Assembly (NCBI GenBank): GCA_030650425.1
Contig: JAUSED010000005.1
Location: 14,932-78,931 of the forward strand
Source of the DNA: Candidatus Omnitrophota bacterium
GTDB taxonomy: Bacteria > Omnitrophota > Gorgyraeia > Gygaellales > Profunditerraquicolaceae
Length of the DNA: 64,000 bases
Direction of reading: 5' to 3'
In this document: positions 45,001 to 64,000 of the stretch, piece after piece
How the letters are laid out: each line of letters begins with the position of its first letter
Numbering within the stretch: position 1 is the first letter of the stretch
The notes under the pieces: model-generated
Database searches by the model: none
Seen by the model: the letters and a program-made list of their open reading frames with translations, nothing else
Told to the model about the DNA's origin: nothing
Position numbers and translations under genes: made by a program

Positions 45001-48000
45001 CCCGACGCGGAAAAACATCGTATTATCAAAGAGCTTAAAGAGTATTTCATCGGCCAAAATTATCCGATCGATGAAACGGACGGCCTTAGGATACTTTTCC
45101 AAAACGGATGGGCTTTGGCCAGGGCTAGCGGTACACAACCAATGATTATCTGTCGCGTTGAAGGAGGGAATAAGATTTCCTTGAGGACTAGCCTTTCCAT
45201 CTTATTTAGGAAACTTCGAGACTATCCCCGGATAAAAATAGGCCCTTGGAATGCTTATTTGGAAGAGCCCAAGGGATTAGCTAGAAGAATTGATTTAAAC
45301 GATCGTAATTTTTCTCTTAGAGAAACTGTTGGACAGGCGTTGCCTCTAGAATATTATTATCAGACAAATATGGAAGAGTTTGGGTTTAGTAAATACGTCC
45401 ACACTGAATATCCTTATGTTGGGCAAACAAGTTATTGCTTGGGGGGAGAATTTTTAGTGACTGAAGAGAACAAAGCCGATTATAAGGTGATTTATTTCGG
45501 AAAGATAAACAATCCAGATGGGCGCTACGAGGCAGAGATTTTGATTTACTACGCGGTAGTAAGTCATGCGATTCACATTGTCATAAAGGACGCAAGCAGA
45601 GATAGTTTTATTTTTGGGAGCAGTGCGAAGCGGGGCGAACTGGATTGGGATAAGGCTATGATTATTATGTACTTAGGAGAGGGTTTCAATGTTAAAAATG
45701 TGACGCATAAGGTAACTCCTATGGGGATGTCACGTTCTATGATAGCGATTGTTATCGAGGATGCGCATATTAGTAGATTTTTACCTGAACTATACCGGAT
45801 TTTTCGGATTCTTCTTGGGCTTCCAGAAGTCAATGAACAGACCAGAAGGGATGAGAAGATAGATAGCGCTATTGTTCCTTTAAGTTTAATCGTTAAAGCT
45901 AATGAAAATCCCGGAGATCTTAACGAAGATGAGATTGAGCGGGTCAAATCTTTTGTTTCTTATAAGAGTTGGGCGCTCAAGAGGATTGGGTTGGATACCT
46001 TAAAGAGGTTGCGTGGTGTAGGCAGGGTCACGGATAGCGACGTGGAAAAGTACGACAACGCAGGCCTAATGAGAAATGCTAATGAGGATTTATTACAGAT
46101 TGATAGATTGTTAAGGAGCGATAAGAAGTTATTGAACGAGGCTTTGAATAATTTAAATATACAGGCTGGTCCTGTTAAGCAGATGGAGCTGGAATATTTC
46201 GAGAGAGGGAATAATAAACAGGTGTATGTCAAATTTTGTGACGAAGAATTACCGACTATGGCTGTTTCTGTTATTCGCTATGGCAGCTTGGGAGTGGAAT
46301 TCAATAAACTGGCCATCATTGAATCGATGAGGCTCTGGGAAGACTTATCCGGAAATAGCATAGAAGAGATCGTGAAACTTGGCAGTTATCGCCTTATGGA
46401 AGATTATCGCCCTCGTTTTAGCGATATCAGCTTTTTGCCAAACGCCAGATATGAAGGCTATATCGATGTGAGTAGATTTATTTACAACAATATTGTTATT
46501 GTTTTCAGGGAATTTGCCGAAGGACGAAATTTGAAAAAGGTTTTAGATGATCCCCATGTTTCAGAAGCCCAAAAACATCTAGCGTTAGAGTCAGCCATTA
46601 GGACATATTTAAGGTTCTGGATAAAATCTAAGAATAAGGAAGGGCAGAGGCTATTTATTGGTGATCCCACGCCATTTAACATTGTTCTTCTTGAGAAGGA
46701 AGAAGGTTATTCCGGGAAGATCATTGATTTAGATGGTATTCAGGTAGTTAAGTCTCTTGAGGATTGTTTAACGATTCTTTTTAACGTTGGTTATGGCCGG
46801 AATACGATTTTAAAGATTGCGAAAGAGGTGAAAGATGCCGGAAACGTTAGTTCTCCCGTATCGTTAAGACACCGGATATATATAACAAGCCTTGGAGGAG
46901 GTTCAGGGCCCCAGAGACTGGCCAAGGGTATTATTCGCTATAACTGTTTTCTTTCTAATATTATAACCGTTTTTGATAATGCTGGGAGTACTGGCATTAT
47001 GCGCAGGGCTTTAGATATTCCTGCCGTAGGGGATTTACGCAATAGGCTTGTTACCCTGCTGCCTGAAATCAAAGAAAACAAAGTAATAGAAACGATATTC
47101 AATTATAGGTTTCCCGAGGAAAGAGAAACTAGAAAAAATAATGAAGAACTAACGGAGGAGTTAAGAAAAATAATTAAAATTAGTGAAAAAAGTTTAGGGA
47201 TAAGAGTGCCTAAAGTAAAAAAAGAATTTTTGCAAGGTTTAATAGAATACTTTATTCAGGAAAAGATTAAAAAGGAGCATGGATTCAGATTGTTTGAAGC
47301 GAATGTGGGTAATATCATCTTAGCGGGTAGATATTTCAGAGAGAAAGAAGATTGGGTTTCGATTATGAAAAAATTATGCGAGCTCTTTGGCGTAAATCGA
47401 TATGCGAAATTGATTCCTGTGAGTTCAGAGAATTTGGATATTGCCGCGCGTCTTGAGAATGGAGAGATTTTTTACGGAGAGCATGAGATTGCTTTTCGGC
47501 CAGATCAGGAAGCGAAGATTAAGGAAATATTCTTTGTTAAAAGAGGTTCACAAGAGAAAGCCGATTTACCTGAAGCCACAGAAGAAGCCTTAAATGATAT
47601 TGGAACCGCAGATATAATTATTATTGGCCCCGGGAGTATAACTAGTTATATCCCTGTTTTGTTAACTCGTGGAATTGCGGGAGCAATCAGACAATCTCAG
47701 GCGGCTAAGGTTTTGCCGGTCAATATTTCTTGGTATAACTTTAGAGAAGGCTTTGCGGAAGCCAAAGGATTAGCAGCTAGTGATATGGTGAGAATGGCAT
47801 TTGAATCGTTAAGAAACGCGGATGAACAGCCTAGTAATAGGATTAGCGATTACATTCAATATGCTTTATTGAATCTTCCAGTTTCCACTCAATTCTATCA
47901 TATTCCAGCTGATCTAGACAATATTCGCGCAATGGGGGTAGAGCCAATCGTTTCTAACTTTGAAGATGATTCTACGCCCGGTTATCATAATTCAGAAAAA

Positions 48001-51000
48001 ATCGCCAAAGCAGCTACAGAAATATATAAGCATTATCTTAATAATCGGACAGATAAGCCAAGTTCGCCTGTAGAATATAAAATTATTCCTATTGGTTTTG
48101 CCGATGATATTTTACAGATTTTAGACAAATTAAATATTAAAGGCGGTAGTATTGAAATTTCAAATGGCAAAGATTGGCTTACTAGAGAAGTGTATGAATT
48201 TGTGGATATATTGGTTCAATATCTCTTGTCGTTTGAGGATGTGAGGACTTTGAGATATTGGAGGGATGATTTAAAATTTGCCTTAAGGGAGGCGATCGAT
48301 AACTCGATTGCGCATGCAAAGGGAAAAGTTTGGATAATCTGGGGAGTAAAAGAAAACAAACTTATTTCTGAAGTTAAGGACGAAGGAGATAAAAAATTTG
48401 AATTGAATACTATAAGCTCGGGGAAAAGAATTTTAGACAAATTTTCTGATCCATTTTCGGATGGCAAAGGTATTGGGCTTAAAATTATAAAGAATTGTGG
48501 CGCGGATAATGTATATATTGTTCTTCTTCTGGATAGTTCTGAAAAAATTATTGGGAATAAGCTTGTTTTAGAGAAATCATTCTTCAGCTCTCCGGTAGAG
48601 GCAGCAGAAGGAAGGATGCAAATCTTGACTTATAGAATAAGTTATAACAGTAAATTTGAGGCAATGGTTATTACTGCTTCAAGCGCTATTTTACTAAAGC
48701 CAAGCGGAGCTAATTTTTATCTTTTGGATCAGCCTATCGCAGGCTCCCCGCTTAAAAATAGATTTACGGGGCTTGCTCCGCCTACGAAGATTGATCCTGC
48801 CGCAGCATTTAATCTTTCCAATACAGATGTTTCTTACACAACTTCTTCTTTACCAATAGGTTCCATAAACGCTCTACAATACCATTACTTAACTTTAGAA
48901 TCTGGAGATAAGTATTGTGTTCCCGGAATTGCCAGAATTGGCGTCTCCTCTTCTCCATTGTTATCTTCGGAGATATTGGGCTTAGTAGTATTATTATTTC
49001 TATTATCATCATTCGTAGTCGCTTGCGTAGTAGGATTGATTTATAAACTTATATCAACATTAGTATTGATTTCTAAACGTATATCAAAGAATGGCACAGA
49101 AGAGAGATCTTGGATAGAAGTTGCAGTAGAAGAGTTGGAAAACATGCCCATATTCCCCGTATACAAAGAAAGAGAAATAGAGGAGCTAAATAAACGTATG
49201 ATAATTTTTGGGCAGCTATTGAGAGAAAAAGAAAGAGGCATAATTGTTATTAGTAATTTGAGGCTGATAGGAAATGATTATTATGAAAGTAACCTTAGCT
49301 GTATGTTGGATAAATATATTAGGAATAATAATTTAGAAACCAATTTGCTTATTCAACTCGTAACCTCAGATGTTAAAAGTTTTGCAAGAGTTTCTTCAAG
49401 GATCTTACGTGAGAGAAGCGAGATTAAGCGTAACAAGATAGCTGTAGAGTTAATAGAAGATTTATCGAGGATGCCCAAAAGATTCACAGTGTTTGCTGAT
49501 CTGCATTCTGGAGGAAATACATCGATTGATAATGTTTTATATTTTAGCAAATTGGAAGAACTAAAGAGGCAGCTTACCGCTGAAAATTACATCTCTAGTA
49601 GTCCTTTAGTAGGAGATAATTCTTCTCTTCAAAGATTAAATATAAAGTTAACTAAGCAGGCCTTATCTCGGGGTAGAGTAGATTTAACCAAAATATATGA
49701 TTCTAAGCTTAAGTATTTTTTAAGATTCTTGGTTAAAAATAATCTTGAGGATATAATCCTTATGGGTGGTGGTGTCAGGGATATATTCTTTGATTCCGAG
49801 ATAACCGATGCGGATGTAAGCATTAAATTATGGCTAACTATAGAGGAGGTAGCCATTTTTGATAGATATCCGCGTTATCCCGCTAACTCAAGAATATACC
49901 ACCGCGTATTAGAGTTAACTGAAAAATTATCCTTGGCATTGGGAGAAGAAGAAAATAGCCTGCTATGTTTTAACCACAACCACAAAGTGTATTTTAACGG
50001 CTTAGAGGTTCAGTATGCCGGGCCAAGGGAGGTTACTGCTGTAAGCGGGCAAAAAGTTGTGATCAACCGTTTCACGGTAGATTCTACTACAAGAAGAGCG
50101 TTTACCTATGTCTGTGGGGCGTCTGCACTTTTAATGGGCCTGGATTGTTTTGGTAATTTATACGGGTTTTATCAAGAAGCGCTTGAAGATTTACTCGCAG
50201 GCAGGACAAGATTAATTGGCAGACATAATTTTACCTTTGGTATGTTATTGCGTATGCTTAGGCTAAAGCATCAATACGGACTTAAAATACCTAAAGATGA
50301 CTGGGGTTTTTGCCTTGAAGAACTACATAAATGGAAGCAGAGTGGTTTGTCTAACCTTATTTGGACTCCAGTAATAGATGAACAGTTAGAAAAGGTTATT
50401 TATAAAGCGCGAGATAAAAAGTCGGCAGAAAAGGAGTTACGCTTTTTAGGGGTAATAGAATTGGCTGCGAATTTGAAGAGAAGTTCTAGCCCTCTTAAGA
50501 CAGGCGCATTGGTTGGGACGAGGTTTGAGCAACAAGTTGCCCGGTTGATGGGCGTGGGGTCCCTTAGCGAAACCCTACGTGGTATTGATACTAGAACTAA
50601 GGAAGAATTAGCTAACGGAGCTATAGGGCAGATTAGCTCGTTCTTAGCGGCAAAAGGCCTTTCTCCGAATGAGAATAAAGCGGAATTAGCCAAACAAGAA
50701 GCTGCTGAAGGGGTAGAGGAATTAATACTTGACGTAGATAAAATTATGCTTAATCTTCGTCCCAGCTCGCCGGTAATAGGTAATGTTGGCGGCTTAAATG
50801 AAGAGAGAATAATCGAAGAAGACGCGCGGAGCATATTACATGATGCGCCTAGCTTCATAGGAGAAATAATCTTGAGGATATTTAACGATAAATTAAATCA
50901 AAATGATATCCGCAAGATGGATATTATTTCTATAGGCGAGGGCGGCTATTCTACTGTATTTAAAGTAACCATTAATGATAAATATGCCTTTGTTCTTAAG

Positions 51001-54000
51001 ATTACGGGTGGGAAAGGAAGGGAATTATTTCGTTCTGATTTGGAAGACAGGTCGGATTGCGTGCACATGATAAAGCTGTATTCACGGGATCACTTGGCTG
51101 TTCAGGGTAGCTGGAAGCCAGTAGAATATAAAAATAATTATTGGTATTTAAATACCCAAGAGTTCGTTAATCCTATTGATGCTAAAGAATTAAGCGAAGA
51201 AGATGGCCTATCGATTATCAAGGACACAGTTAAGGCCTATTTTATCACTTGCGGAATTGATGAGAAAGGATGGAGGAAAAATAAGTTACCTTATATATTC
51301 TCGTTCCCCATAGACGTAAAGCTCGCAAATGTAGGTTTTATTATAAAAGAGGGTAGAAAGATAATTAAAATATTTGATATTGATTTGGCTAGAGATTCCA
51401 CTCCTTTTAGGATTTGGCTTGTTTTAGGCACATTAATGATACGAGCTTGGAGTAATAATAGCGCAGAGGCGATATTTAAAGGGATAGAAGAAGCAATGGG
51501 CAAGAAGAGTGCTAACGAGTTTATAAATATAGCTTATAACGAATATACGGATTTACTTTCTGAACCAAACTTTACAATTAAAGAAAAAGAAGAGGGAGAC
51601 ATTGAGATGTCCGAAACAGTACCTGATTCTTACGGTAAGCATACCCGTATAACGAAGGTATCTAAGCAATTGATAAAATGGTTTGTTGAGCGATCAAGCT
51701 CGCCGGTGGGCAAATTTAGTATTATTAAAGGCATGGATGTAGATAGTAGATTAGTGGATGGAGTAACCAATATTAATTACGCTATAGGTAATCAAAGATA
51801 TGCTTGTTGGGTGGATGATAATGCAGCCATTATTAGTAGAGCTAGCGTTTACACTAATCATACCGTGATTGCCTATCTAGGAAATATAATAATAGGTTAT
51901 ACGGTGTTCGGGCCGCTATTTCATTATCCTATTTATGTATATCAAATGGCAGTTATGCCGAGGTATCAAAGTAGAGGTATAGGAGCAGGGCTATTTAAAA
52001 AATTAGTAGATTTTTCACAAGCCCAGAATATTCATAAGATAACCTGCCATGTGAGTATTAATAATCCCTCTGGAGAATTTTACTTTAAATTACCTTATAG
52101 GCTCAAAGAAATCGCTGATATTGAATACGTTCCAGATGGTATAGCTCCCGATAGTAGTCAGATTCTTAGAGTTGAATATAGGATAGAAGCTTCAGGCAAA
52201 AATGCTTTAAAATCCAGCTCTCCGGCGGAGAACTACCGAATTCACAATAGAAGTAGCCAGGAGCCAAAAGTATCTTTACTGTTTTCAGCAGTTACTACTA
52301 TTGATAAATTTACGCGGAATCACGTGTTTAGTATTATCGTCCTTGGTGTGTTTGCTTATGTATTTCTTAAACTGGGATTGTATCCGGATAGGATCATCAG
52401 CGGTAAAGCAAGCGGATATTTTGATATCTGCCTGGAAGCTGTCAAGGCCACAGTTCTTAATAAAGAATTTCTATGGAAAACGGGCCTTGTTTATCTTGTT
52501 TTCGGCACGCTAACGGATTATTTAGCAAAGCGCGCAAACAGAGAGACGTATTCATGGAAAGCGTTTAAAGGGGTTATAAAATATTCTATTCTAAAGGCCG
52601 TTTTTGTCTTTGTGTTCTTTATTGCCATTGCCGGGTTGGATAAATTTTGGCGCGTAATCTTCTCAGGAATTTTGCTTGGTTTTATCCTCTTGAATATCCG
52701 CAAATGGATGTTCTATTCTGAATATCAGGAAAAAAAATCAGAGGCATTGAAAAAGCGGACATCCGAGATGTATTGGCTGACGCGGATATGGATTTTTGGC
52801 CAGAATTTTATTGTGCAGGTTTTGTTTCCCATAGAGCGTAGGGCGTTAGCCAATGCCATAATTTCACAGCTGCATTCTTTGTACAATAGCTATGGATTGC
52901 ATGAACAGGGACCGTCTCTTATTAAAAGAGAGCTTTTGGTAACTAAGATAGAAAGCTCGCTATTTATAAGATGGCTAAGGTATGCCCAGAAGGCCTTAAA
53001 TGATTTCATTGTAGTTAAGTTTTCGCGCGCGAAGGTTAAATTTATTAATAAGTTCTTTGGCAGGGCTTGGGATAATTCTGCCGCACTCATAGTCTTTGGT
53101 TCTATTGCGCCATTTGTTATAGCGATTGATGCGCTGCGTAAAAATAGTTTTCTGAAGAATAAAGCAGCTGGGATCTTACAAGATCAACGGGGGAAATCTG
53201 TCGATCTTGATTCTGGCCCCTCCAGCTCGCCGGTGGAGTTAGAAAAAGCCAATAAGCAGTTTATACTTGAACAATTAAAAGAAGCTTTCTTGGGAGAATA
53301 CAATCGTTCCTTTGAAGGAACGTATGGAGTGGAATTGATAAATTCTGTTTTTGATATTGTTACACTTTTACAGGATGAAAATGTTATCCACAAAAAACAA
53401 ACAGCCCATAACCTACTCTTCACCAAAACAGAGCAAGGTTTATCAAAAGTCTATATCTTTCCCAGAAAATTCCAGACCCCTAGTGAACTTGGTACTGGTG
53501 TCGCTTTTTTTGAATTAGGCGGTGAGTTGATTGCTTTGATCAAGGAACATAAAGACATCCCAGCAGATAGTAAAATAACCAAAGCCTACGAGGATATTAC
53601 TAGCGTAGAAGAACTTATTCCAGAACTCGAAAATACCAGCTTGCCTGAACAGGAATTAAAAAATTTGAAAGAAAAGGTCGTTAAGAGGTTTATTGCCAGC
53701 TCACCGGTGAAGAAGATAATAAAGATTAACTTACTTCAGCAGCCCCTTGAAATCTTCTATGGAGATGGCTGCTCCTTTAAGAATAGCACGCAGGGTTCCG
53801 GGTTTGATAGAGCTAGAACCATGGAGAGGAACAACAACTCGGCGGGTCAAGTCTTGAGAATGGCCGGGATGGGCAAATTATCTTCTTTCATAGTTTCTAT
53901 ATATAATGAAACTGCCTCTTTTGCGTTACGTATAGCTTCCTCCAGAGTTTCTCCTTGCGTAGCGCAACCTGTCAAGCTGGGTATAGTTACAGAGAATCCT

Positions 54001-57000
54001 CCAGAAGGCTCTTTTTCAAGTATTATTTTAAATCTGCGTAGCATTTTTAACCTCCTTCTTGATAACATAGAGTATAACCTCTTCGGTAAAGTAAGTCAAG
54101 CCAAAACTGCGGATGCATTATTTAGCGTCCAATTTGCCCATAGCTCGCCAGTGGAGCCAAAAGGAACAAAATCGGCCTTACCTTATCTAATAAATATAAT
54201 AACTTTTGAGAGTAAACTTGGGGCAATGGTGATTGTTGCTTCAAGCAGCATTTTAGTAAAGCCGGATAGCAAGGCAAGTTTGTATCAAAAGAGTATTAGA
54301 GCAAGCTCTTCGCTTAAAGGTATCCACACAGGGCTTTCTCCCCCGGAAAGAATTTATTATACCGCCTCATTCAATCTCTCTATCGCAGATATTTCTTCCA
54401 AAACTTCCTCTTCGCCAATAGGTTCCATAAACGGTCTACAATATCTTGTGTCCCCGGAATTAACCCTTATGATTTTAACAGGCCTTAAATTTATTGTAGG
54501 GATATTGGGTATAGTAGGATTGATTTTGCTCTTTAAGATAATAAAACGAAGATATAAGCGTATAGAAAAATACAGAATTGAACATTTCTTTGCCCGAATA
54601 GATAAGGGAGATATCCGGGGAAAGGATGATTATGATAAATTGATAAAAATGATCAATAAAGAGATTTATATCTCGCCATCCCTTTTTCCATCCCCTTTCT
54701 CTTATAAAACATATTTCCACGAGGCAGCGCTGCAGAGATTTGGCAAATTCATAGGCTTTTATTTCTCCGAGATGCTTGGTTCTCTTACGTCTTTGAAAGG
54801 AAGGGGAGTCTCAGAGCAGAGGCATATTTTTAGAGGATACGCCTTCTTACCCATAAATGTTTTATATCGTGTTTTATCTAGTGATGAATATAAGGGTATG
54901 CAGAATATAGCTTCTAAGCATATGGAAACTTTGCTGGGAAAAATAACGGATATAGAGCCCTTAAAGATGCTGGTTAATTGTTACGATGGCCCAATTTGCG
55001 GTATGGTCGGTTTTCGTCTTGGCAAAATAGCAGATGTATCACTTATTCCTCTTATGGCAACTTGGTACAATAGCTGGGGAAATGAGCGTATTGCTGCTGC
55101 TGAAGCCTTAGGGTCTTTGATAGGCAAGATTATAAGCGATATGAATATTGATTATTTAGAGATGGTTTTGATGGACCCTCGACTTGGAGACTTTCATGAG
55201 CCTGTTTTTGGCGCTCTCTGTCTCGCGCTTGGGGAGAAACGCAGAGAGAAACATATTCAAGGAGAAAAACTGGAAAGGTTTGCCAAGCTTTTGGCAGGCT
55301 TTATCAAGGGTAAGAAAGGTGAGGTTACAACCCGTGCCGCAGGCTGTTTAATCCAATTAGGAGAGCCTGCAATGATGATATATCTTCAAGACTTGACAGG
55401 AACGAAAACTGGTATGCCTGAACAACTCCCTATACTGCCTGATATAATCAAGTGGGCTACCGAGAATCTTCAAGATATATCTATATTAGGAAAGCTTTTG
55501 TCTGAAGAGAGATATACCGGGGATAATGAGGATTTAAGAATAACAATTATTAAAAGCTTAGCTAAGATAGCTTCCCCTGAGGCTTTTGGGACTATGATTG
55601 AGTTTTTGGATAGAAATATAGGTCCCGGAGGTATCAATAAATGGGAAGTCGCGGAGGATATGTTTTTATCGCTAGTCCGCCGGAAGAAGGCAGAGGATAT
55701 GGTTTTATCGTTAGCCCTTAAGAATGTAAAATTATTGCCCTTTGCATTAGTTTTGCTAGGAGCAACAGCTGTTCGTAGTATTATTGTTTGGCGAAAGGTG
55801 ATGAAAAACCTTGGTGAAGGTTTAATAGATAGCATAGTGAAGCAATATGAAGAAGCGCCTAAAAATGAGCGCTTAAAAGTTGAAATTGTCAGGACCTTGG
55901 GAGAGAATAAGGTTAGGGTTAAAGAAGCGATTGATGTGCTTGAGCGAGCTCTTGAGGAGAAGTTTCCTTCCTTCCTTTCTTTACATGCCGCCTTGGCGCT
56001 TTTAGAAATCGATCCCTGCCGCTCCTGCCACTACAAGATGAAGTTAGAAAAACGTAATTTTTTAGATTCAATTTACTGGCCACGAAGAATTCTTACGGCC
56101 AAAAAAGGCAAATATGTTTTACAAATTGTAATAGATGCTAGAGGTGTTTATCGAATATTTAGGCCTGGCCAAAGACCAAAGAATTTTAGAAAGATACCCC
56201 TGAAATTAAAAAGCATATTTGATAGGGGTAGAGGGCTTATAGAACCAGCGATTGCCCCTGAGAAAAAATCAAGAATTGACGAATTCCTGGAGTTGGCAGC
56301 GCAATTAAACAAGAAAATTTACTCCAGCTCGCCGGTGGAGGCAAAAGCGGCTGGAAATCAGGGAGCCAACTGGCGGCGGGCCAATTTTTCACCCGAGACC
56401 TCACTGCTCTTTGCTATCTTTCCACTCCAAGAGCAAAAGAGGGCTCTTAAAAGATACAGGGCCTTAATGCGGGATGCGGCCAAGATTATCCCAGAGTATA
56501 ACAGGCCAGAAAAAAATGTAGACAGTTTATCCATCTCATCGCCTGTCAATGAGTTAGAAAACAAATCCGCAACGATAGGCCGCTCCAGCTCGCCGGCGGA
56601 AGAAAATAATTTGATAGAAAGGTTATTTCCGGTAGGCGTCTTCTCGAGTATCTACTCCATCGATGACAATGCTCCCGCTGACAAGATAGAAACAGATACG
56701 ATATTTCCCAACTCTAAATCTATGAGTGGCGGGAGGCAAGTTAACCAGAGGCTTTGCGAAATAAAGTGGTTTACCGGAAAAAATGTAGAGGTCGATCTTT
56801 TCTATGACGCGTTTCTGCAGTGGAAGAGAAAGCTTTTTAAATTCCCGTTCGCCGGCAGGAGTGAACTCAACCTTGGTAAGCATAGCAGGATTCAGGACAT
56901 CCCTAATTTATGCTTAATTTTATCAAAGGAGACCAATCCTAGCGCTTGGGCCTCCTCAATTCCTCTCTTTAATCTTGAAGCTAGTTTAGGATTAATCGGC

Positions 57001-60000
57001 AGGCGCTCTTCAATCCCATCAATAAGCCAGCCACCAGGATTAGAGAAGACGTATTCTTTAGCGGGAGCAGACTTCTCAAATCTGTCGTCAAACGCGCAGA
57101 GTAGATCCCACAGGGAGCCTGTATCAAAGATAAAATATTTCGGGGCTCCATTTTTATCCACAACGGCCGCGGCCTTGAAGTCCTTAAGTTCCGATTTCTT
57201 CAATTTTTTAGGAATAGCCGCGAATTTCTCAATGGGTTCTATTTTGACAGACTCTTTTGATGACTTAACTAATGATTTTGATCTCATTTCTTCATCCTCC
57301 CTTATTTATAAACAGTATAACACATTCTTTTTCGATCTGTCAAGCCGGATATCGTTAACGAATAATAGGGGTGGTTCTATTTTAAGTAATAAAAATCGCT
57401 CCAGCTCGCCGGCGAAAGAGATAAGATATGATGCGGATGAGGCACAGGATGTATCTCTTGGCCTAAAGCCAATAAAAGCTGTGGTTGAAGCTGCGCGGAG
57501 CCTCATTAATGGATTAGATAAAAGGACTATAGGATTAAGTAAGGTTAAGGGAGAGTCTGTTATCGTGCAGTTTAAAAATAAAACAAAGCAGGAGAAAGTT
57601 TGGCTTAACTTTGGCACAAAATTAAGAGATTTTGTTTCGCTGATGGAGGTAAGATTACTTTCAGATCCAGATATTAAGGTAAAAGTCTTGATCAATATGT
57701 TTAGCAAAGACAGAAAATTCTTGCTAATTTTTTATACTAATGACAAGGTTTATTTCTATGATACTTATGGAGAGATAGGGTCTTTAATTAAATTAGATAA
57801 GAAGGCACAAATATTGGGTCTTGAAAAGTTATTAAAAAATAAAGCGGTAAAAAGTTTTATTGATTACGTCCTCATTGGATATATTTCTCAACCAAAGTTT
57901 ATCAATGAAATTATTAAAATTTATCCTGCCCGTCCCTATAAGGCTAGGGGGGGTACAGAGCTTCGTTTTGATAAGACGGGCTATGAACTTCCTGATAGCA
58001 AAGAGACAGAGTTGGGAAGGATTCTGGAAAAAGAAATGGTCATCGTAACAGATAAAATAGCGGAGGGTAAAATATTTACTATTTTACTTGAAAAAGATTC
58101 GCTTAATAAAGCCGCTCCACACTATCTTTTATTTTTATCCCTATGCGATAGGGTACAACTTTATAACGAAGCCGGTTTTATTGTTGAATATATCAAAGAC
58201 GGGAAAAATCACGGCTACAGCGATAACCTATTCATCAACACCTTTCTTCTTAGTATCGCTTTTAAGCAAGAGTCAGCATGGAAGACTTTAGATTTAGGCC
58301 GCCAAGCGACGCACGCGATTGTTATTGGCGGGGCAGATAGAGGCTCTTTAACAATTCCAACTACAGGTATAACTTTAGAAGCATTGAATATTCGTAAAGA
58401 CGGCGGGGCGTGGATACCTGTTAAGCGGATAAGAAAAGGCGATATCATCTCGGGAGTTTGCGGTTTAGGGGGAGGCCAGTATTATGTTGACGGTATAGGA
58501 GCGCCTTTAGGAGACAAAAAATTCCCGGCTATTCTTTTAGAAGGAAAATTAAATCTTCCAAGTGTAATCCGCTGGCTATCGCAAGATGGCTCCAAAGAAA
58601 ACATCCCTGTTTCAGAATTTTTGAAAGAACTTTTTGGCAGCCGAGCAGAGAACGGCCAGAGTAAAAAGATTATGTATAGATTAGAAAAATCTAAATCCAA
58701 AAGGCCGGTTTATGATAGAAAAACAGCTCAATGGTTGGAAAAAGTTGTTTGGATCATCGTTGATTATGGCAGTGAAGAAGAATCAGGAATATATACATTG
58801 AATAAAGTCGTTGATAAGTTGGTAGAGATGAAAGGAAAGTTTAATCCCCTCTCTGTTTATATCCTTAAAGATTTACGCAGGGCTATTATTGAGCATCTGC
58901 CTTACGCAGCTTTAGCCCAACAGGAGGCAATTGAACGCATTCTTTCATTAGCTTTGCCGCAAGTGAGCCGAGAATTAGCCGAAAATCCACAAATGCAAAA
59001 ATGGATAGGAACGGCTATCCGCGGTTTATGTCAGGCAATAAAAATTAACCTAATCTCAGCTTTAAGACTACATGCTTTATTGGCAATCGAATATTTAATG
59101 GTTACAGAAGATGTCAAGCAAGAAATAAATGGGTTAATAAAATCCCGCGTTCTTAATGAAAACAAGGGAAATAAACTTCGAATTATAGATACGGCTTTGA
59201 TTTTAACAGTAAGGCTAAATTCAAGCCCGATTCTAGCCCCGAGAAGCACTTTAGTAAAGCCGGATAATAAAGATTATTTACTTCATCTAGAAAGTATTGA
59301 GGCAAGCTCTTCGTTTAAAGATATCCACACAGGGCCTTCTCCTCCGGGGATAAATTATTATCTCGCCCCATCCAATTTCTCCGCCATAAATATTTGTTTT
59401 ATAACTTCTAGTTCACCAATGGAAGAGAAGGCAGATAATTCTGAAAATAAGTATCGTGCCCCCGGAATTACGCGCTCTAGCTCACCTTTAAAACGAAACA
59501 ATCGCAGGCAAGATAGAACATACATACCATCATCTTTAGAAAGATACGGATATAATTTGGGCCAGTATTTCGATAAGTATTATGCTAAATACCTGTCCGG
59601 GGGGATTATTGCTAAACTTGAGGAAAACGGTTATTTCGAAACCCTTTTTGGTACGTATGTAAACACGCCTACGCCTAATTATATAGAACTGGTTAGTGAT
59701 ACAGAGCTGCAAAGAAAGATTGGCCTGCTCTACCTGAGCGGTTTGGGATTCCTGATTGAAGATGGGGTAAGTTTTGCCTGGACAGAGGGGAATTTTATAC
59801 ATCCGATATCAGCAAGGCCTCTTAATATAAAATACGCAGAAAGCGAAGATTTATTCCTTAGAGTAGAGCTTATATTGCAGAATATGCCTTTAGCTCAGCA
59901 GGATGAGTTTATAAAGATGCACTTGGCGCCGATCTTGTGTAAAACCCCGGAATTCTTAGATAAATTGATTACCTTAATTTTAAATATGCTCGATATAGAA

Positions 60001-63000
60001 GATAAAGAAGGATTGATTAAAGATTTAGAAAATTCCTATATTGTTGTTAAGGAGAGGAATTTACCTAAACCTTCGATGTATATTTTGCGGGAATATCTTT
60101 CTACCTTAGTCTTGCATGAAATTGGAGAATGCATCTTTTTTGTCTTACCCGACACTCTTAAGGAAGAGTGGAGGACTTTAGTTACCAGGGAAGTCCTTCC
60201 TTATCTTGGCATCATATATCTTAGGGGTTATGGTAAAGCGATTATACAAAGAGCGCAGGAAATATCTGCACAAGGTGCATTAAGGCTTGGCAGATTGGAA
60301 GAGGAGTTCTTTGCCGATGCCTTTACAGTAATCTTTGACAGGAGGAAGAATATTTTTGCAGAATTTGGAGAAGGGATCCGTGACGAATGGGAAGAGTTCA
60401 TGATTAAGAAAGTAAAGCCATACTTAATCAAAAAGCACAACTCTGGCAAGAATAGCTGGCAAGTTGAAAGCGGAGAGATCATTAGAATCTATAGAAATTC
60501 AGCCATAATTGAACCGAATGATGTAGAAGAGTCATCGAGGGAATCTTCCAGCTCACCGGCGAAGCAATCCTCTTCTCCAATCGAAGGCTATGCCGTTGTG
60601 ACGGATGGTAAAACTGATTCTGCCGCCGAAGAGGGCAATCCGGGAGCACATTGCTCAACAGCTTTAATCTCCAGCTCAGCGATGGGTATAAGCCGCAGAA
60701 GCTTTATTAAAAATAGCTCTTTGGTTTTATTGGGTCCGTCGAGATTAGCCTCTCTCTTGCGTTATTTAAGCGCGTTATCTTTGGCAGGCTGTGGCGGAGG
60801 CGGCGGCACGGAAAACCAGGCCCCTGCGCCTCTTCCGGCCCAGACTGAACTGGAGTGGATAAAGAGCAGGGTTAACCCCTCAACATTCCTTGCGGAAACT
60901 TACCAAGGCCTTTCATCAACAGACCTCTCCTTTAAAAAGTCCTTCATTTACGACCAAGGTTTGGCTATCAGGGCCTTAGTGGAATTTGGCGGCCCGGAAG
61001 AGTTTGCGCTGGCTGAAAAGATGATTGATGCAAACGGAAACGGAAACGTAGACAGTTTATCCAGCCCATTGTCTGCCATAGACTTAGAAAACAAATCCAA
61101 AATGACAAGCCGCTCCAGCTCGCCGGTGGAGAAACAAGGTGAAAGATTAGAACTGATCCTAACTTATATAGGCGATTATCTTTTACGCAGCAGCTCAAGA
61201 AATTCATTCGGAGATAGAATATCAAAGCCTTTGGCTTTGAGTACGAGAATGTCTTTGTCTAAGCTCACTAAGGGGACTTTTGATTCTGCAGCTAAGGACA
61301 GGATAAAATCATCTTCGCAATCTCTACAGATATCTAACTCGAGGCGGGTTTTGAGCTTATGGCTCTTGTCGTCAATTAACGCCACAAGTTCCTTTGCTTC
61401 ATTAGCGGGAATAAGCCTTTTAACCTTTGGTTTACTTAAAGTATCATTGAGCTCTTTTAGTAATTTCTCAGATACAATTAGCGTAAATTCCTCATTGATA
61501 AATGCGTTTAAGATAGGCCTGGTCAATGAGCTATTCATCAGCGCGCTTATCCAGATATTCGTATCAATGACAACCTTAAGCATATTAATTAGCTTTTCTT
61601 ACTTTCTTTACAATGCGTACAATTTCGTCGTTAGAAAGAACCCTGCGGTTCTTAATCCGCTTGTCGATTCTAGAGATGAGATTCTTAAAGCGCAATTGCC
61701 AAGTCTCCAAGTTCAACCTTCGGGCAATGATCAGTTTTTCTTCCAATGGAAGTTCTTCTATAAGATTCTCAACCTGCTTAGTATTAAGTTCCAAAGTTAC
61801 TTTAGACATGTAAAACACCTCCTATCATTAATAAACTACTCGTCAACAAATTATAACCCAATGCCGCCTTTGCGTCAAGTTTATAATCTTCAGAGGATTG
61901 TGAATAAAGAGGAGAATAAAGGTGACGGTTCTATTTATTTCCAGTATTTCCAGCGAGAAAATACAGACAGTTTACCTATCCCATCGTTTACCAAGGAGTT
62001 AAGAAATAAATCCGTAATGACAGGCCGCTCCAGTTCGCCTGCGGAATTGAGTTATAGATGGAGTTTATTTATAAGGATTAGGGAAGGGGCAGATTATTTA
62101 CTCAATATTTTAAGACAACTTTCAGCAGTTAGTACTTTAAATGGTAGGTCAGCAGAACGACGGGATAAAAAATGCCTATTTTCTGTTACCAATGCATCTG
62201 CGCCTGTATATTCTGAAAACGCGCCAATAAGCGCGTCTGCGGGCTTAAGCCCTAAAGTTTCATATTTTGTGCCTAGTTCAAATGGCACCTCAAAGTCTTC
62301 ATCAATTTTAGTCCAAGCATTGATGAGAAGTATAAATTCCTTAAAGGCTTCAGGCGTTAGATTATCGCGCACCTCTTCAATGATTAAGCGCAGGATTCGC
62401 ACGGTGATATCTTCTGGACGTTCTGCTATTTTTTCAATCAGTTTTTCAGAAGGCGGATATCTGACTGCGCCTAAGGCAAAGATGTATTCATTACTATCGA
62501 GAATGAGCCGCAAATTTTGCCTCCCAAATCTTTTCACGAGTTTTACGAATTTTCTCAATTATTTCTTGCTTGCTAAGACCCCGGCACGGGGAGCTGACTT
62601 TGGACATAAGTTGTCGAATCTTGTCGATGCGCTTTTTAACTTCTTGAATATTTTTTCTCATAATTCTTCACCTCTAAGTAAGGTTAACATACCTAAAAAC
62701 TTTAGTCAAGTGGTTATTACTAATGACTACTTCAGTCCTCTTAGCCGTGGTGCTTCGCCGATTAAGCAGGGTTATCGTAGCTTTGCGGTGGAAGCAGCAC
62801 CTTCTATAAAGAAAGATTCTGCGCGCAAAACGCCGTTTAGGCCGAGTTCAAGTAGCCCTCTTGGTTCTCTTGTTACAACTCTTGGCGGATATCATTATAT
62901 CGGGTTGCGCCAAAGAATAGGACTGGATGACCATTTTGCCAATGGGCCGCCTGCGGTAGATACCTCTAGCCTATCAAGGATTTTTTCCATAACATCTTCT

Positions 63001-64000
63001 CCTATAATAGATTACATAAAGCGTCTACCTATTCTACCTATTGTGTCCCTTTCGGGAGCGTCCCCTATTGCTACCCACTCAGTTTCTCTTTTTATTGAGA
63101 TTATCCGTAAAGGCGCTGGCGCCTCTAGCCCGGTAGTTTTAGAGGCTAAGAAAAACTATAGAGATTTGATGCATGATCTGAGGGGAAATTTTATTGTTGT
63201 TAGGAGTTGTATACTTAAAGGCCAGAATGAGCTGCCTCAATATTTTGACAAAACTAATGCTGATTATACAGTAATTCCGGAGCTGGAAGCTTTCTTAAAA
63301 GCGGCAGATGTATTTATTCAGATGATGGACAAAGATTCGCGTTTCATACAAGAAGAAATCAATCAGGGATTACCCAGGGAAGGGCTGCCAAGAGAGGAAA
63401 CAGAAGAAACAATAAGCAAGAACCTGGGCCCATTTTATCAAGCGCTAAAAGGCCTTGAGAAATTAAAAGATAATTTTACAGAGCGGGTAAATTTATATAT
63501 GAACCTATGTGTTAGCGCCAGTAATGCGGCGCTTGTGACAATGAACAAATTATTATTCTGGACAGGGTATTCGATGTGGCCATGTGAAGACTTGAATAAA
63601 TTTATTAAAGAGATAGTGGAGCCTTTTAGGGCGCAGCACTTTGGTTATCTTCGAGAAAGCGCATTCACTAAAGCAGAGCCGCAGAAATTACTGGACGCGG
63701 GAATAGCAAGGAAAGCGGATGGGCGAATACATTGGAGCGTCTCTAGCGAGCAGGAATTATATCAGAAATTAGCCGAACTAGAGAATTCAAACATTGAATT
63801 TGTGGTTAAACAATGGAAGGCCTGGCGCAAGATCGAATTTACGATCAAAATCTCGAAGTTCTTAAAGGCCGGAGAAGTTTCTGTCTATACAGATGTTATA
63901 AGGGATACTTTGACAGACCTTGCTAACAATGCCATAAAGTACAGCGGGGCAAACAAAATAGAGATTAAGGTTTTCCATAAAAAAGGCGAGGCGCATTTTA
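1..64000 (+). CDS. giant multidomain ORF in frame +1, partial at both ends (no in-frame stop anywhere in the window; at least 21,333 codons)
   Basis: ORF track has no +1 ORF with both ends in the window; only eight short +2 ORFs and none in +3. Codon-by-codon read of 53761-54180 and 60481-64000 plus about 15 scattered lines found no stop. The translation is protein-like with many recognisable domain motifs. Confidence 0.85.
300..800 (+). other. domain: degenerate GGDEF-like nucleotide-cyclase fold (GGDEI)
   Basis: ...YIGFGDMVGVRVMNKAHS...VKYGGRAIRIGGDEIGIILP at 541-600 matches the DxDxFK...RYGGDEF pattern with F->I. Confidence 0.45.
2497..2895 (+). other. domain: CheY-like response-regulator receiver (REC)
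   Basis: KILLVDDESSLRELTRMF...YDLILTDLDMPRMGGLDLA...TPVIMTSGRG...LSKPYMNKEL. The acidic pocket DD, the phospho-acceptor D in TDLDMP, and the conserved T and K are all present. Confidence 0.85.
3730..4750 (+). other. domain: protein-kinase-like fold (kinase-like 1)
   Basis: Catalytic-loop-like ITDPKPENIIIT at 4351-4386, followed by IFFIDLDY (DFG-like) at 4411-4434. Confidence 0.4.
4822..4875 (+). other. internal Met plus twin-arginine (Tat) signal-like segment
   Basis: In-frame ATG at 4822, then MAKNIPLTRRGFIKLTAFLVGLGVL. TRRGFIK matches S/T-R-R-x-F-L-K and is followed by an h-region. It sits directly after an SSP linker (TTSSP). Confidence 0.5.
4900..6230 (+). other. domain: alpha/alpha-toroid-like (six-hairpin glycosidase-like?) family, copy 1
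   Basis: YRYYAAYSYDMAIYAIVLKML ... DGGFRMGPRGQ ... ESAIAFLDLLYSS ... DKEAGVFFRGSR. It is paralogous to 12870-13900 and to the fragment at 60880-61040. Confidence 0.3.
6240..8270 (+). other. domain: family-2 glycosyltransferase, processive synthase-like, with polytopic membrane region and a C-terminal beta-rich module
   Basis: QIPTRNEP...QVIDNSD (6520-6650), ILDVDS (6820-6840), GHNGIWRKSALDKIGGW...SEDTD (7030-7110), QKRTRKF (QxxRW-like). TM helices at about 7300-7800. Confidence 0.7.
9480..11800 (+). other. polytopic membrane domain (many predicted TM helices)
   Basis: Long hydrophobic runs, e.g. LLAVSLASLFIAGAALYLGYLL, ITPFIYIGVLFISAFI, GIPILVALIPLLKALLLIL, WLFSGPVALALVT. The function is not recognisable. 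Confidence 0.5.
12229..12378 (+). other. domain: LysM peptidoglycan-binding
   Basis: YIVKPGDNLSTIAQKTLGKAGLWPKIYELNKKVIGSNPNLIFAGQKFSLP. Confidence 0.75.
12870..13900 (+). other. domain: alpha/alpha-toroid-like family, copy 2
   Basis: YGKSYIYDLAVYIDVLSY...DKGVFRFTSDKKD...TEHQISAYAAFNWLV parallels 5040-5600. Confidence 0.3.
15650..16900 (+). other. coiled-coil-rich region
   Basis: Q/E/K/L-rich heptad-like stretch (NQLRRQMVAFNKLAEAINRL...QELSTVNAKISEAEQLLAKAQA...). Confidence 0.4.
26440..27060 (+). other. domain: HAD-superfamily phosphatase-like (sugar-phosphatase type)
   Basis: Motif I VFIFDIDGTVS at 26452-26484 (DxDGT), with downstream small hydrophobic/S-T motif II candidates. Confidence 0.5.
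29497..29682. repeat. R2 repeat, copy A (about 185 bp; 157-bp core at 29524-29680)
   Basis: 96% identical to 50482-50663. Frame +1 encodes SSSPIQTGALVGTRFEQQVARLMGVGSLSETLRGIDIRTKEELANGAIGQINSFLAAKGLS. Confidence 0.9.
29730..30650 (+). other. domain: sugar-phosphate nucleotidyltransferase-like (NDP-sugar pyrophosphorylase fold)
   Basis: VRPIVMAAGNATRFSRF (29728-29780; the G-x-G-T-R signature) and a later KGHGDAF. Confidence 0.5.
31600..35110 (+). other. module P1: expanded CofD/YvcK (UPF0052)-like domain plus a conserved C-terminal region
   Basis: CFGGGSGTLAIL at 31831, VHVLQSSIDDGGSTFK at 31930, GITFGPGSFFTSTMPHFLVKGLAKAL at 33330-33410. Paralogous to P2. Confidence 0.6.
35158..36640 (+). 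other. domain: glycogen/starch synthase-like (GlgA, GT5)
   Basis: MHIVMVSAEAYP from ATG 35158; PDVIHVHDWPISLIPLL (35560-35620; compare GlgA DVVHAHDWH); GILPGVDYEAFDPVED; C-terminal MPHSAVPGSFVPLYSLRYGTVPVVNAIG (compare GlgA SRFEPCGL..LY.LRYGT.P.V). Confidence 0.75.
37850..38860 (+). other. domain: ROK-family sugar kinase-like (copy 1)
   Basis: VLVGLDMGGSYIKLV at 37855 and VYLINDGDADAF at 38245. Confidence 0.6.
38880..42380 (+). other. module P2: paralog of P1 (expanded CofD/YvcK-like)
   Basis: CFGGGSGMLAIL at 39110, VHVLQTSIDDGGATFK at 39190, GITFGPGSFFTSLMSYFLAKGLAKAL at 40585. Collinear with P1 and about 55% identical at the amino-acid level by eye. Confidence 0.6.
42800..43790 (+). other. 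domain: ROK-family sugar kinase-like (copy 2)
   Basis: LWFGLDIGGSDLKTVVV at 42820 and VYVINDGDAAA at 43170. Confidence 0.65.
43850..45250 (+). other. domain: phosphoglucomutase/phosphomannomutase (alpha-D-phosphohexomutase)
   Basis: GGIMITASHNPYHYNGFK at 44130-44185 (the active-site Ser loop), GIAFDGDADRL at 44560-44590 (the metal loop), GGEQSGHFFF at 44810. Confidence 0.85.
46200..46850 (+). other. domain: protein-kinase/APH-like phosphotransferase fold (kinase-like 2)
   Basis: RLFIGDPTPFNIVLL ... KIIDLDGI at 46648-46740. Confidence 0.4.
46880..47760 (+). other. domain: canonical-length CofD/YvcK (UPF0052)-like
   Basis: ITSLGGGSGPQRL at 46890, ITVFDNAGSTGIMRR...PAVGDLRN at 46960-47040, ADIIIIGPGSITSYIPVLLTRGIAGAI at 47610-47690. 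Motif spacing matches YvcK. Confidence 0.7.
48180..48540 (+). other. domain: HATPase_c (RsbW/SpoIIAB anti-sigma-factor kinase-like)
   Basis: LREAIDNSIAHAKGKVWIIWGV...EVKDEGDK...DGKGIGLKIIKN. Confidence 0.5.
48640..48960. repeat. R3 repeat, copy 1 (about 300 nt)
   Basis: Shares ..gaggcaatggt.attg.tgcttcaagc...ttagtaaagcc.., ..ccaataggttccataaacg.tctacaata.. and the terminal gtgttcccggaattgcc with copies 2 and 3. Confidence 0.6.
49700..50400 (+). other. domain: nucleotidyltransferase head (poly(A) polymerase / CCA-adding enzyme type)
   Basis: IILMGGGVRDIFFDSEITDADVSI at 49757-49830 (the GGxVRD...DxD signature). Confidence 0.5.
50482..50663. repeat. R2 repeat, copy B (core 50506-50662)
   Basis: 6 mismatches over the 157-bp core, 4 of them synonymous in frame +1. 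Confidence 0.9.
50880..51690 (+). other. domain: kinase-like 3 (APH/PKL-like)
   Basis: ISIGEGGYSTVFKVTINDKYAFVLKI ... KIIKIFDIDLARD. Weak match. Confidence 0.3.
51720..52200 (+). other. domain: GNAT N-acetyltransferase
   Basis: IYVYQMAVMPRYQSRGIGAGLFKKLVDFSQ at 51940-52020 (the motif A R/Q-x-x-G-x-G/A). Confidence 0.65.
52230..53220 (+). other. membrane segment (4-6 TM helices), function unknown
   Basis: VFSIIVLGVFAYVFL, GLVYLVFGTL, AVFVFVFFIAIAGL, FSGILLGFILL, ALIVFGSIAPFVIAI. Confidence 0.4.
53731..53877 (-). pseudogene. hicA-like toxin remnant (C-terminal half only; no start, overlaps the hicB 3' end)
   Basis: The minus frame gives FAHPGHSQDLTRRVVVPLHGSSSIKPGTLRAILKGAAISIEDFKGLLK, which matches the HicA C-terminus (..hp...vtvPvH...GTLRsILKqAgls.eef). 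No N-terminal helix or start codon. In-frame TAA at 53878-53880. Confidence 0.45.
53847..54044 (-). CDS. hicB: HicB-family antitoxin (UPF0150)
   Basis: MLRRFKIILEKEPSGGFSVTIPSLTGCATQGETLEEAIRNAKEAVSLYIETMKEDNLPIPAILKT. AGGAGG at 54051-54056 lies 6 nt before ATG 54044. The ORF-track start at 54068 lies at or upstream of the predicted transcription start. Confidence 0.8.
   Translation of the reverse strand: MLRRFKIILEKEPSGGFSVTIPSLTGCATQGETLEEAIRNAKEAVSLYIETMKEDNLPIPAILKT
54071..54099 (-). promoter_or_regulatory. sigma70-type promoter for hicB: TTGACT, 17 nt, TATACT
   Basis: Minus-strand read: cTTGACTtactttaccgaagaggtTATACTctatgttatcaagaAGGAGGttaaaaATG. -35 at 54094-54099 and -10 at 54071-54076. 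Confidence 0.7.
54175..54468. repeat. R3 repeat, copy 2
   Basis: Same blocks as copy 1; ends gtgtccccggaattaaccctt directly before the in-frame ATG at 54469. Confidence 0.6.
54469..56320 (+). other. TM-anchored HEAT/ARM-repeat segment
   Basis: In-frame ATG at 54469, then MILTGLKFIVGILGIVGLILLF (TM). Repeats with AAEALGSLIG, TTRAAGCLIQLGEPA, IKSLAKIASPEA, IVRTLGENK, LHAALALLEIDP. Confidence 0.45.
56505..56601. repeat. R1 repeat, copy a (about 90 nt; ends in the 19-nt SSP-site)
   Basis: aatgtagacagtttatcc...ttagaaaacaaatcc...ggccgctccagctcgccggcggaag. Lies immediately 3' of the relE stop on the minus strand. Confidence 0.75.
56623..56883 (-). CDS. RelE/ParE-family toxin
   Basis: MLTKVEFTPAGEREFKKLSLPLQKRVIEKIDLYIFSGKPLYFAKPLVNLPPATHRFRVGKYRICFYLVSGSIVIDGVDTREDAYRK. 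Only 8 nt downstream of the upstream ORF's stop (translational coupling). Confidence 0.7.
   Translation of the reverse strand: MLTKVEFTPAGEREFKKLSLPLQKRVIEKIDLYIFSGKPLYFAKPLVNLPPATHRFRVGKYRICFYLVSGSIVIDGVDTREDAYRK
56892..57287 (-). CDS. putative antitoxin (unclassified family) of the RelE/ParE module
   Basis: 131-aa ORF immediately 5' of the toxin. AGGGAGG at 57296-57302 lies 8 nt before ATG 57287. Consensus promoter upstream. Confidence 0.45.
   Translation of the reverse strand: MRSKSLVKSSKESVKIEPIEKFAAIPKKLKKSELKDFKAAAVVDKNGAPKYFIFDTGSLWDLLCAFDDRFEKSAPAKEYVFSNPGGWLIDGIEERLPINPKLASRLKRGIEEAQALGLVSFDKIKHKLGMS
57314..57343 (-). promoter_or_regulatory. sigma70-type promoter for the antitoxin-RelE operon: TTGACA, 18 nt, TATACT
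   Basis: Minus-strand read: gcTTGACAgatcgaaaaagaatgtgtTATACTgtttataaataAGGGAGGatgaagaaATG. -35 at 57338-57343 and -10 at 57314-57319. Confidence 0.65.
59215..59490. repeat. R3 repeat, copy 3 (more diverged)
   Basis: ...ttagtaaagccggataataaag...gaggcaagctcttcgtttaaagatatccacacagggccttctcctccgg...gtgcccccggaattacgcgc. Confidence 0.5.
60685..61040 (+). other. Tat-signal plus lipobox lipoprotein-like segment, truncated by the R1/PIN cassette
   Basis: In-frame ATG at 60685: MGISRRSFIKNSSLVLLGPSRLASLLRYLSALSLAGCGGGGG. SRRSFIK is a twin-arginine motif and LAGC is a lipobox. Then FIYDQGLAIRALVEFGG (alpha/alpha-toroid-family N-terminus) runs into R1. Confidence 0.55.
61040..61131. repeat. R1 repeat, copy b
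   Basis: aacgtagacagtttatccagccc...ttagaaaacaaatccaaaatgacaagccgctccagctcgccggtggag. Lies immediately 3' of the PIN toxin 1 stop. Confidence 0.75.
61176..61583 (-). CDS. PIN-domain toxin (VapC/COG1569-like)
   Basis: MLKVVIDTNIWISAL...CRDCEDDFILSLAAESKVPLVSLDKDI. The conserved D in beta-1, the DD and the LVS.DKD signatures are present. Confidence 0.8.
   Translation of the reverse strand: MLKVVIDTNIWISALMNSSLTRPILNAFINEEFTLIVSEKLLKELNDTLSKPKVKRLIPANEAKELVALIDDKSHKLKTRLELDICRDCEDDFILSLAAESKVPLVSLDKDILVLKAKGFDILSPNEFLELLRKR
61585..61809 (-). CDS. putative antitoxin of PIN module 1
   Basis: MSKVTLELNTKQVENLIEEL... AGGAGGTG at 61816-61823 lies 6 nt upstream of ATG 61809. The ORF track extends to a GTG at 61818. 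Its stop is 1 nt from the toxin start. Confidence 0.55.
   Translation of the reverse strand: MSKVTLELNTKQVENLIEELPLEEKLIIARRLNLETWQLRFKNLISRIDKRIKNRRVLSNDEIVRIVKKVRKAN
61850..61878 (-). promoter_or_regulatory. sigma70-type promoter for PIN module 1: TTGACG, 17 nt, TATAAT
   Basis: Minus-strand read: cTTGACGcaaaggcggcattgggtTATAATttgttgacgagtagtttattaatgatAGGAGGtgttttacATG. -35 at 61873-61878 and -10 at 61850-61855. Confidence 0.7.
61955..62046. repeat. R1 repeat, copy c
   Basis: aatacagacagtttacctatccc...ttaagaaataaatccgtaatgacaggccgctccagttcgcctgcggaa. Lies immediately 3' of the PIN toxin 2 stop. Confidence 0.7.
62094..62558 (-). CDS. PIN-domain toxin 2
   Basis: ...LRLILDSNEYIFALGA...GADALVTENRHFL. 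The likelier start is TTG 62513-62511, preceded by GGGAGG plus 6 nt; that gives MRLILDSN... Confidence 0.75.
   Translation of the reverse strand: MRKFVKLVKRFGRQNLRLILDSNEYIFALGAVRYPPSEKLIEKIAERPEDITVRILRLIIEEVRDNLTPEAFKEFILLINAWTKIDEDFEVPFELGTKYETLGLKPADALIGAFSEYTGADALVTENRHFLSRRSADLPFKVLTAESCLKILSK
62494..62661 (-). CDS. putative small antitoxin of PIN module 2 (55 aa)
   Basis: MRKNIQEVKKRIDKIRQLMSKVSSPCRGLSKQEIIEKIRKTREKIWEAKFAAHSR. GAGGTGA lies 6 nt before ATG 62661. It overlaps the toxin start. Confidence 0.5.
   Translation of the reverse strand: MRKNIQEVKKRIDKIRQLMSKVSSPCRGLSKQEIIEKIRKTREKIWEAKFAAHSR
62681..62709 (-). promoter_or_regulatory. candidate promoter for PIN module 2: TTGACT, 17 nt, TAACCT
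   Basis: Minus-strand read: caCTTGACTaaagtttttaggtatgtTAACCTtacttagAGGTGAagaattATG. -35 at 62704-62709 and a weak -10 at 62681-62686. Confidence 0.45.
63130..64000 (+). other. domain: sensor histidine kinase core (HisKA H-box plus HATPase_c N-box), partial at the window end
   Basis: YRDLMHDLRGNF at 63160-63195 (H-box) and DTLTDLANNAIKYSGANKIEIKV at 63910-63980 (N-box). Confidence 0.6.

Follow-up and report, generated by a model that had tools for sequence, protein, structure and literature searches.

On the minus strand of a 64,000-nt stretch of Candidatus Omnitrophota contig JAUSED010000005.1 (the window, to which all coordinates refer), two adjacent genes are predicted to encode a RelE-family toxin and a partner protein. 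A stop scan under the standard code showed that + frame 1 is free of stop codons over 1..63999 (21,333 codons, open at both window ends), so that the two genes lie antisense inside a giant open reading frame (ORF). This giant ORF had been overlooked in an earlier, sequence-only reading of the window. From the comparisons below we consider it likely that the pair is an intact, independently transcribed operon of a RelE-fold toxin and its partner, carried antisense inside a giant ORF of the Omnitrophota type.

The toxin gene (56623..56883, minus strand, stop codon included) encodes 86 amino acids from an ATG start and was identified by homologs, profile, fold and omega. The partner gene, the antitoxin candidate (56892..57287, minus strand), encodes 131 amino acids, also from an ATG, and was identified by homologs, adjacency and omega. 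As read from the sequence, the partner ORF is followed after an 8-nt gap by the toxin ORF; the sequence-only reading had described such a two-gene minus-strand operon, and both ORFs were found where it placed them. The TTGACA-18-TATACT promoter that it had proposed was also present (57314..57343, minus strand). By its match to the consensus it is of sigma-70 type, with a −35 TTGACA at 57343-57338, an 18-nt spacer ending in TGT and a −10 TATACT (TGTTATACT box) at 57319-57314. It matched 11 of the 12 consensus positions and had the TG extension in addition, and the promoter including this extension was kept in the related loci L003, L006, L007, L010, L012 and L002. A Shine-Dalgarno-like sequence, AAGGGAGGA (57295..57303, minus strand), was read 7 nt before the partner ATG, with purine-rich counterparts in related loci. 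The layout is that of a type II toxin-antitoxin (TA) operon: the antitoxin candidate comes first, the spacing is tight and the operon has its own promoter.

Homolog searches with the toxin gave 53 proteins at E≤3e-12, of 82–105 aa plus a few shorter fragments, with identity up to 80%; several of them, from Omnitrophota, carry RelE/ParE names. The family profile matched solved RelE structures in the PDB with E-values from 2.5e-7 to 2.6e-3, among them Rv2866 at 2.5e-7 and T. thermophilus RelE at 2.1e-6, and PF05016 was matched by 13 of 27 family members (best 4.4e-12). The AF2 model of the toxin had a pLDDT of 82.7 and a pTM of 0.71. When it was compared with the PDB using Foldseek, the ten best matches were all RelE toxins (query TM 0.66–0.77, probability 1.00), and ParE structures ranked below them. 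The C-terminal R...Y and the RVGxYR core were kept in the family. R62, R80 and Y84 were invariant or nearly so, and in the alignments they match the C-terminal RxxxYR of Rv2866 and of T. thermophilus RelE. The alignment to E. coli RelE, whose catalytic basic and aromatic residues are R61, R81 and Y87, ended at residue 78. The profile, the family matches to PF05016 and the modelled fold all agreed with the earlier proposal of a RelE/ParE-like toxin and identify the 86-aa protein as a RelE-fold toxin, a new member of a known family. It is probably a ribosome-dependent mRNA endonuclease.

The 131-aa partner had 48 homologs. In 23 of 25 related loci a full-length partner ORF immediately precedes the toxin gene; the exceptions were L017 and L022, where just a 9-aa and a 54-aa ORF stood upstream. 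The partner probably neutralises the toxin, a role assigned to it because of conserved adjacency alone.

To both small proteins strong purifying selection applied. Omega in the toxin frame was 0.07 between the window and L003 and 0.07–0.23 over the comparisons made, and in the partner frame it was 0.05–0.17. In the host frame across the toxin gene omega was 0.8–1.2 with zero stops, so there was no amino-acid constraint on the host peptide there; for the peptide of the whole passenger module (56584..57399) it was 0.86. Omega in the host register of the partner is uninformative about which strand is selected. Dual-coding antisense overlap, with amino-acid constraint on both strands, was thus not what we found, and the only constraint visible on the host frame was the absence of stops.

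Within 56599-57396, + frame 1 contained no stop codon, while frames 2 and 3 contained 22 and 27. From the codon usage of the window 4.4 antisense stops were expected in the toxin gene and none was seen (P(0)=0.0036); for the promoter and leader region P(0) was 0.087. The toxin codons are aligned with the host codons, and therefore only TTA, CTA and TCA are dangerous in the toxin gene. Leu and Ser codons that give antisense stops made up 0 of 152 in the toxin genes of 12 nested copies versus 20 of 68 in free-standing ones, the latter set being six copies from loci of 31–50% GC. The host frame is stop-free across the operon because codons that read as stops on the other strand were purged, in the toxin gene these three.

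The arrangement was found repeatedly. Of 25 genome loci, 11 had the whole operon antisense within an open frame, and these frames measured 1,349 to more than 4,941 codons. Among 49 metagenome loci such nesting was seen in 13, and one frame there was at least 6,207 codons long. Both genes were full-length in all 12 nested loci. The register of the nested copies was always identical, and the spacing between the two genes was always 2 mod 3. Seven giant ORFs were compared with that of the window. For six of them (L004, L006, L011, L012, L018 and L051) the segment with the antisense operon was the sole similarity, and the seventh (L003) had one additional module in common. That giant ORFs otherwise so dissimilar share this segment points to repeated insertion of the operon rather than a single inherited event. 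Free-standing copies were located among ordinary genes (L001/L008) or, in L002, directly past the stop codon that ends a giant ORF. Free-standing L008 has one antisense stop over 900 nt, and L009 has a 300-codon frame beside a 2,025-codon ORF. The nearly stop-free antisense frames of L008, L009 and L020 suggest that these copies recently left a giant ORF or that such an ORF broke up around them.

In several relatives the operon was located within an intein. Pfam Intein_splicing (PF14890) spanned the cassette as one split match in L004, L006, L007, L010 and L019, and its N-terminal half was matched in L024. The flanks of these loci contained C1 (GL|CVT.DT), block B (TTxNHPYL) and blocks F/G (VYDIEVEGTHNF...AHN|T). 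The catalytic C1, TxxH and HN|T were present in L006, L007 and L010, and the terminal HN|T also in L004. Since splicing blocks stand on both sides of the cassette, the operon sits where the homing endonuclease normally lies. Other inteins in the giant ORFs of L006, L024 and L004 carried other genes in antisense between Hint blocks B and F, namely DUF433/DUF5615 (Mut7-C RNase) pairs and a DUF5647 gene.

The operon in the window is bracketed by two identical copies of an 18-nt direct repeat, CGCTCCAGCTCGCCGGCG, exactly 816 nt (272 codons) apart at 56581..56598 and 57397..57414 (plus strand), both encoding R-SSSP-A in the giant frame. The 87-nt repeat R1 (56514..56600, plus strand) lies on its 3′ side. 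Further R1 copies at 61044-61130 and 61959-62045 showed 79–83% identity, and each copy was located just 3′ of a minus-strand toxin gene, the RelE gene or one of two PIN genes. The sequence-only reading had placed R1 on the 3′ side of the operon and an SSP-site on its promoter side, with the same modular boundaries as those of the PIN cassettes. Both elements were there, and the PIN modules share the R1/SSSP boundaries. The SSP-sites do flank the operon; they are codons of a peptide motif of the opposite-strand giant ORF and not established sites of DNA recombination. The DNA motif CTCCAGCTCGCCGG occurred in 11 copies at ≤2 mismatches between 48.5 and 62 kb, versus 0.2 in shuffles, and its repeat reads R/Y/P-SSSP-[AV]-E in + frame 1. 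At the peptide level [SATV]SSP[VAIL] occurred 47 times in the giant ORF of the window versus 3.7 expected, with many different codons. It was enriched 10–20 times in the window and in L003, L011, L012 and L018, and these last four are the giant ORFs, among five without an intein cassette, in which it was the commonest 4-mer; from giant ORFs of the intein type it was absent. Such enrichment with varied codons marks it as a short peptide signal of the non-intein giant-ORF class. The SSSP motif alone cannot tell which strand is selected, because its wobble positions coincide with a minus-strand GELE reading (derived by hand). The copies identical at the DNA level are a recent subset of the peptide motif sites. 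The motif may be the processing signal of the giant proteins, and could act in cleavage, in release or as a linker.

The segments between SSP sites are protein-sized. Further antisense genes of TA type were located in SSP-bounded segments of the giant ORF at 61176-61583, 61585-61818, 62094-62558 and 53847-54068 (minus strand). They comprise a PIN_3 gene (6.8e-18) next to an ORF of 77 aa, a weaker PIN match (4.3e-4) and a HicB-like antitoxin (1.6e-13). The antisense TA cargo occupies separate SSP modules (56584-57399, 61114-62028 and 62029-62847), with HicB in a sub-segment.

The giant ORF encodes, in register, the Pfam domains GGDEF, response regulator, GT2, CBM30, LysM, starch synthase/GT1, ROK, PGM, CofD (twice), GNAT and HEAT. 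These domains agree with those reported for the giant proteins of Omnitrophota (10.64898/2026.06.07.730766; 10.1101/2023.11.21.568195), and the taxonomy of the closest loci likewise points to this phylum. Its giant ORFs reportedly yield one mRNA each and have been observed in proteomic data (10.1101/2023.11.21.568195). An alternative genetic code behind the scarcity of long ORFs was rejected, as + frame 1 is stop-free under the standard code. The 272-codon module antisense to the operon (56584..57399, plus strand) has a junk-like sequence, and its passenger peptide found no match in a set of 5.8 billion proteins. An Rfam scan of 52–64 kb gave no match either. GC skew of the plus strand fell from about 0.18–0.39 at 40–52 kb to 0.035–0.13 in the stretch with antisense cassettes (52000-64000). 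Module 60568-61113 (plus strand) has an internal start with a Tat signal and a lipobox-like sequence, MGISRRSFIKNSS...LSLAGC, and looks like a once-independent lipoprotein gene fused into the giant ORF. The modules at 29500 and 50482 begin with the near-identical peptide SSSP[IL][QK]TGALVGTRFEQQVARLMGVGSLSE, which argues for module duplication within the giant ORF. Members of a 136-nt repeat family, D1 (63–76% identity), were found at 48722-48857, 54284-54419 and 59285-59420, about 5 kb apart; the peptides encoded by the copies at 54.3 and 59.3 kb resemble each other (...HTG.SPP...Y...SFN/SNF...) and run up to an SSSP site at their end.

We propose that ribosomes would translate the giant mRNA straight through the antisense strand of the operon and would thereby make a segment of 272 aa, delimited by SSSP motifs, that can be discarded. 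In the relatives with inteins the passenger segment lies inside the intein and would be spliced out. In the window, by analogy to splicing, the SSP motifs probably serve as linkers or as places of processing, with an equivalent outcome. Most likely the operon would serve for addiction or stabilisation, or persist as a selfish passenger, and so resist the loss of its segment. Several observations weigh against this proposal. Neither Hint/Intein_splicing nor peptidase domains were found by Pfam in the giant ORF of the window, and therefore removal of the passenger peptide is proposed by analogy only. Antisense stops are also absent from three free-standing copies (L009, L020 and L023), of which two lie in GC-rich loci; part of the stop avoidance could therefore be compositional. 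Of the expected families for the two ORFs, that of the toxin could be assigned and that of the partner could not: Pfam, NCBIfam, the PDB profile search and AF2 with Foldseek gave no match for it, hhalign to a YefM sequence gave none, and no recognisable DNA-binding or antitoxin fold was seen by Pfam, PDB profiles, hhalign or Foldseek. The Foldseek comparison that the sequence-only reading had suggested for the antitoxin candidate had a best E of 0.29 (model pLDDT 74.6). Its suggested ParE_toxin/RelE profile search succeeded for the family profile and family members, and the window toxin alone scored 13.1 bits against PF05016, below the cut-off of 23. The stabilising role is proposed because TA modules play it elsewhere.

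Three other explanations were weighed. The giant frame might not be translated as one polypeptide; it might be a polycistron that lacks stops, in which translation starts internally or ends by release at SSP sites, and the operon would lie in an effective spacer between separately made proteins. The protein-sized modules between SSP sites (the GNAT module has 173 aa), the internal Tat/lipobox-like start MGISRRSFIK...LSLAGC at about 60.7 kb in module 60568-61113 and the L002 operon just past the true stop of its giant ORF would suit such an arrangement. Purging of antisense stops across operon and promoter, however, makes sense only if ribosomes read through, and in the intein loci the cassette is flanked by the two splicing halves, N- and C-terminal, with neither stop nor start between them; we regard a polycistron as unlikely. 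It also seems improbable that the operon is an integron-like cassette of site-specific recombination, with the SSP/R1 DNA as attachment sites and the peptide reading incidental. Identical 18-mers do flank the operon, R1 follows three different toxin genes and mobility between giant ORFs is clear. However, the 47 SSP[VAIL] sites (3.7 expected) have varied codons and also bound sense-coded enzyme modules, and the cassette copies in intein loci are without SSP/R1 sites. No hairpin of attC or terminator type in R1 or the SSP sites was significant against shuffles (z −1.5 to +0.8), and Pfam found no recombinase domain in the window.

That the minus-strand ORFs are relics or shadows, either a dead TA operon or chance antisense ORFs, is very hard to reconcile with omega values of 0.07 (toxin) and 0.08–0.17 (partner) between nested copies, although gene callers recorded neither protein for the contig and many other minus-strand ORFs of the window have no family match. 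Moreover, the genes are intact in 12 of 12 nested loci with conserved promoter and ribosome-binding site, free-standing orthologous operons exist and the toxin has a RelE fold. We give this explanation hardly any weight and retain that of an intact antisense operon inside a translated giant ORF.

If this explanation is right, complete selected operons can live on the opposite strand inside coding sequence. Standard gene callers cannot report nested antisense operons, which have therefore probably been missed systematically in giant-gene lineages. A frame kept open through foreign DNA is also an indirect argument for continuous translation of giant ORFs. The processing points of giant proteins were listed as an open question (10.1101/2023.11.21.568195), and the SSP motif is a candidate for them. 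A wider claim, that TA operons are a regular antisense cargo of removable giant-ORF segments (inteins in one class of giant gene and SSP modules in another), forming a previously unrecognised composite selfish element, is possible, but we hold it to be somewhat doubtful. On this claim the host segment would offer the operon a neutral home in a coding region, the operon would make the segment costly to lose, and [SATV]SSP[VAIL] would be a new processing signal that cuts giant proteins into protein-sized products. In the related loci inteins and TA modules, both selfish elements, are linked in a manner for which we found no earlier report. No description of inteins with antisense TA cargo came up in full-text literature searches, and inteins, antisense genes and nested genes go unmentioned in the giant-gene preprints 10.1101/2023.11.21.568195 and 10.64898/2026.06.07.730766. 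An antisense operon in a giant ORF, and in the inteins of relatives, thus appears to be an undescribed architecture.

RelBE-type operons, such as M. tuberculosis RelBE2 (Rv2865-2866) and those of T. thermophilus and E. coli RelE, have the same small RelE-fold toxin as the second gene of a tight two-gene operon with its own promoter. The window operon differs in that its partner matches no RelB, Phd/YefM, ParD or helix-turn-helix (HTH) family or fold, and in that it lies wholly inside, and antisense to, another ORF. With inteins that carry homing endonucleases, the cassettes of L004, L006, L007, L010, L019 and L024 share the place between Hint blocks B and F, and they too would leave the host protein by splicing. 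The usual cargo is an in-frame endonuclease domain, whereas that of these loci is a complete opposite-strand operon with its own promoter, and in the window there is no Hint domain.

Sedentary chromosomal integrons, such as the Vibrio superintegron, hold TA cassettes. Like them, the window has several unrelated TA pairs (RelE, PIN and HicB-like) scattered through an array of modules with a repeated sequence at the boundaries, and by analogy a role in stabilising the array against deletions, as for integron TA cassettes, is plausible. Unlike an integron, the window has neither attC-like hairpins nor an integrase, its array is a single ORF and the repeat at the module boundaries is a motif of the peptide. 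Antisense overlapping genes of bacteria likewise have ORFs on both strands of the same DNA. Here, in contrast, one strand is constrained in its amino acids and the other avoids stops over about 800 nt, across a whole operon and in many loci.

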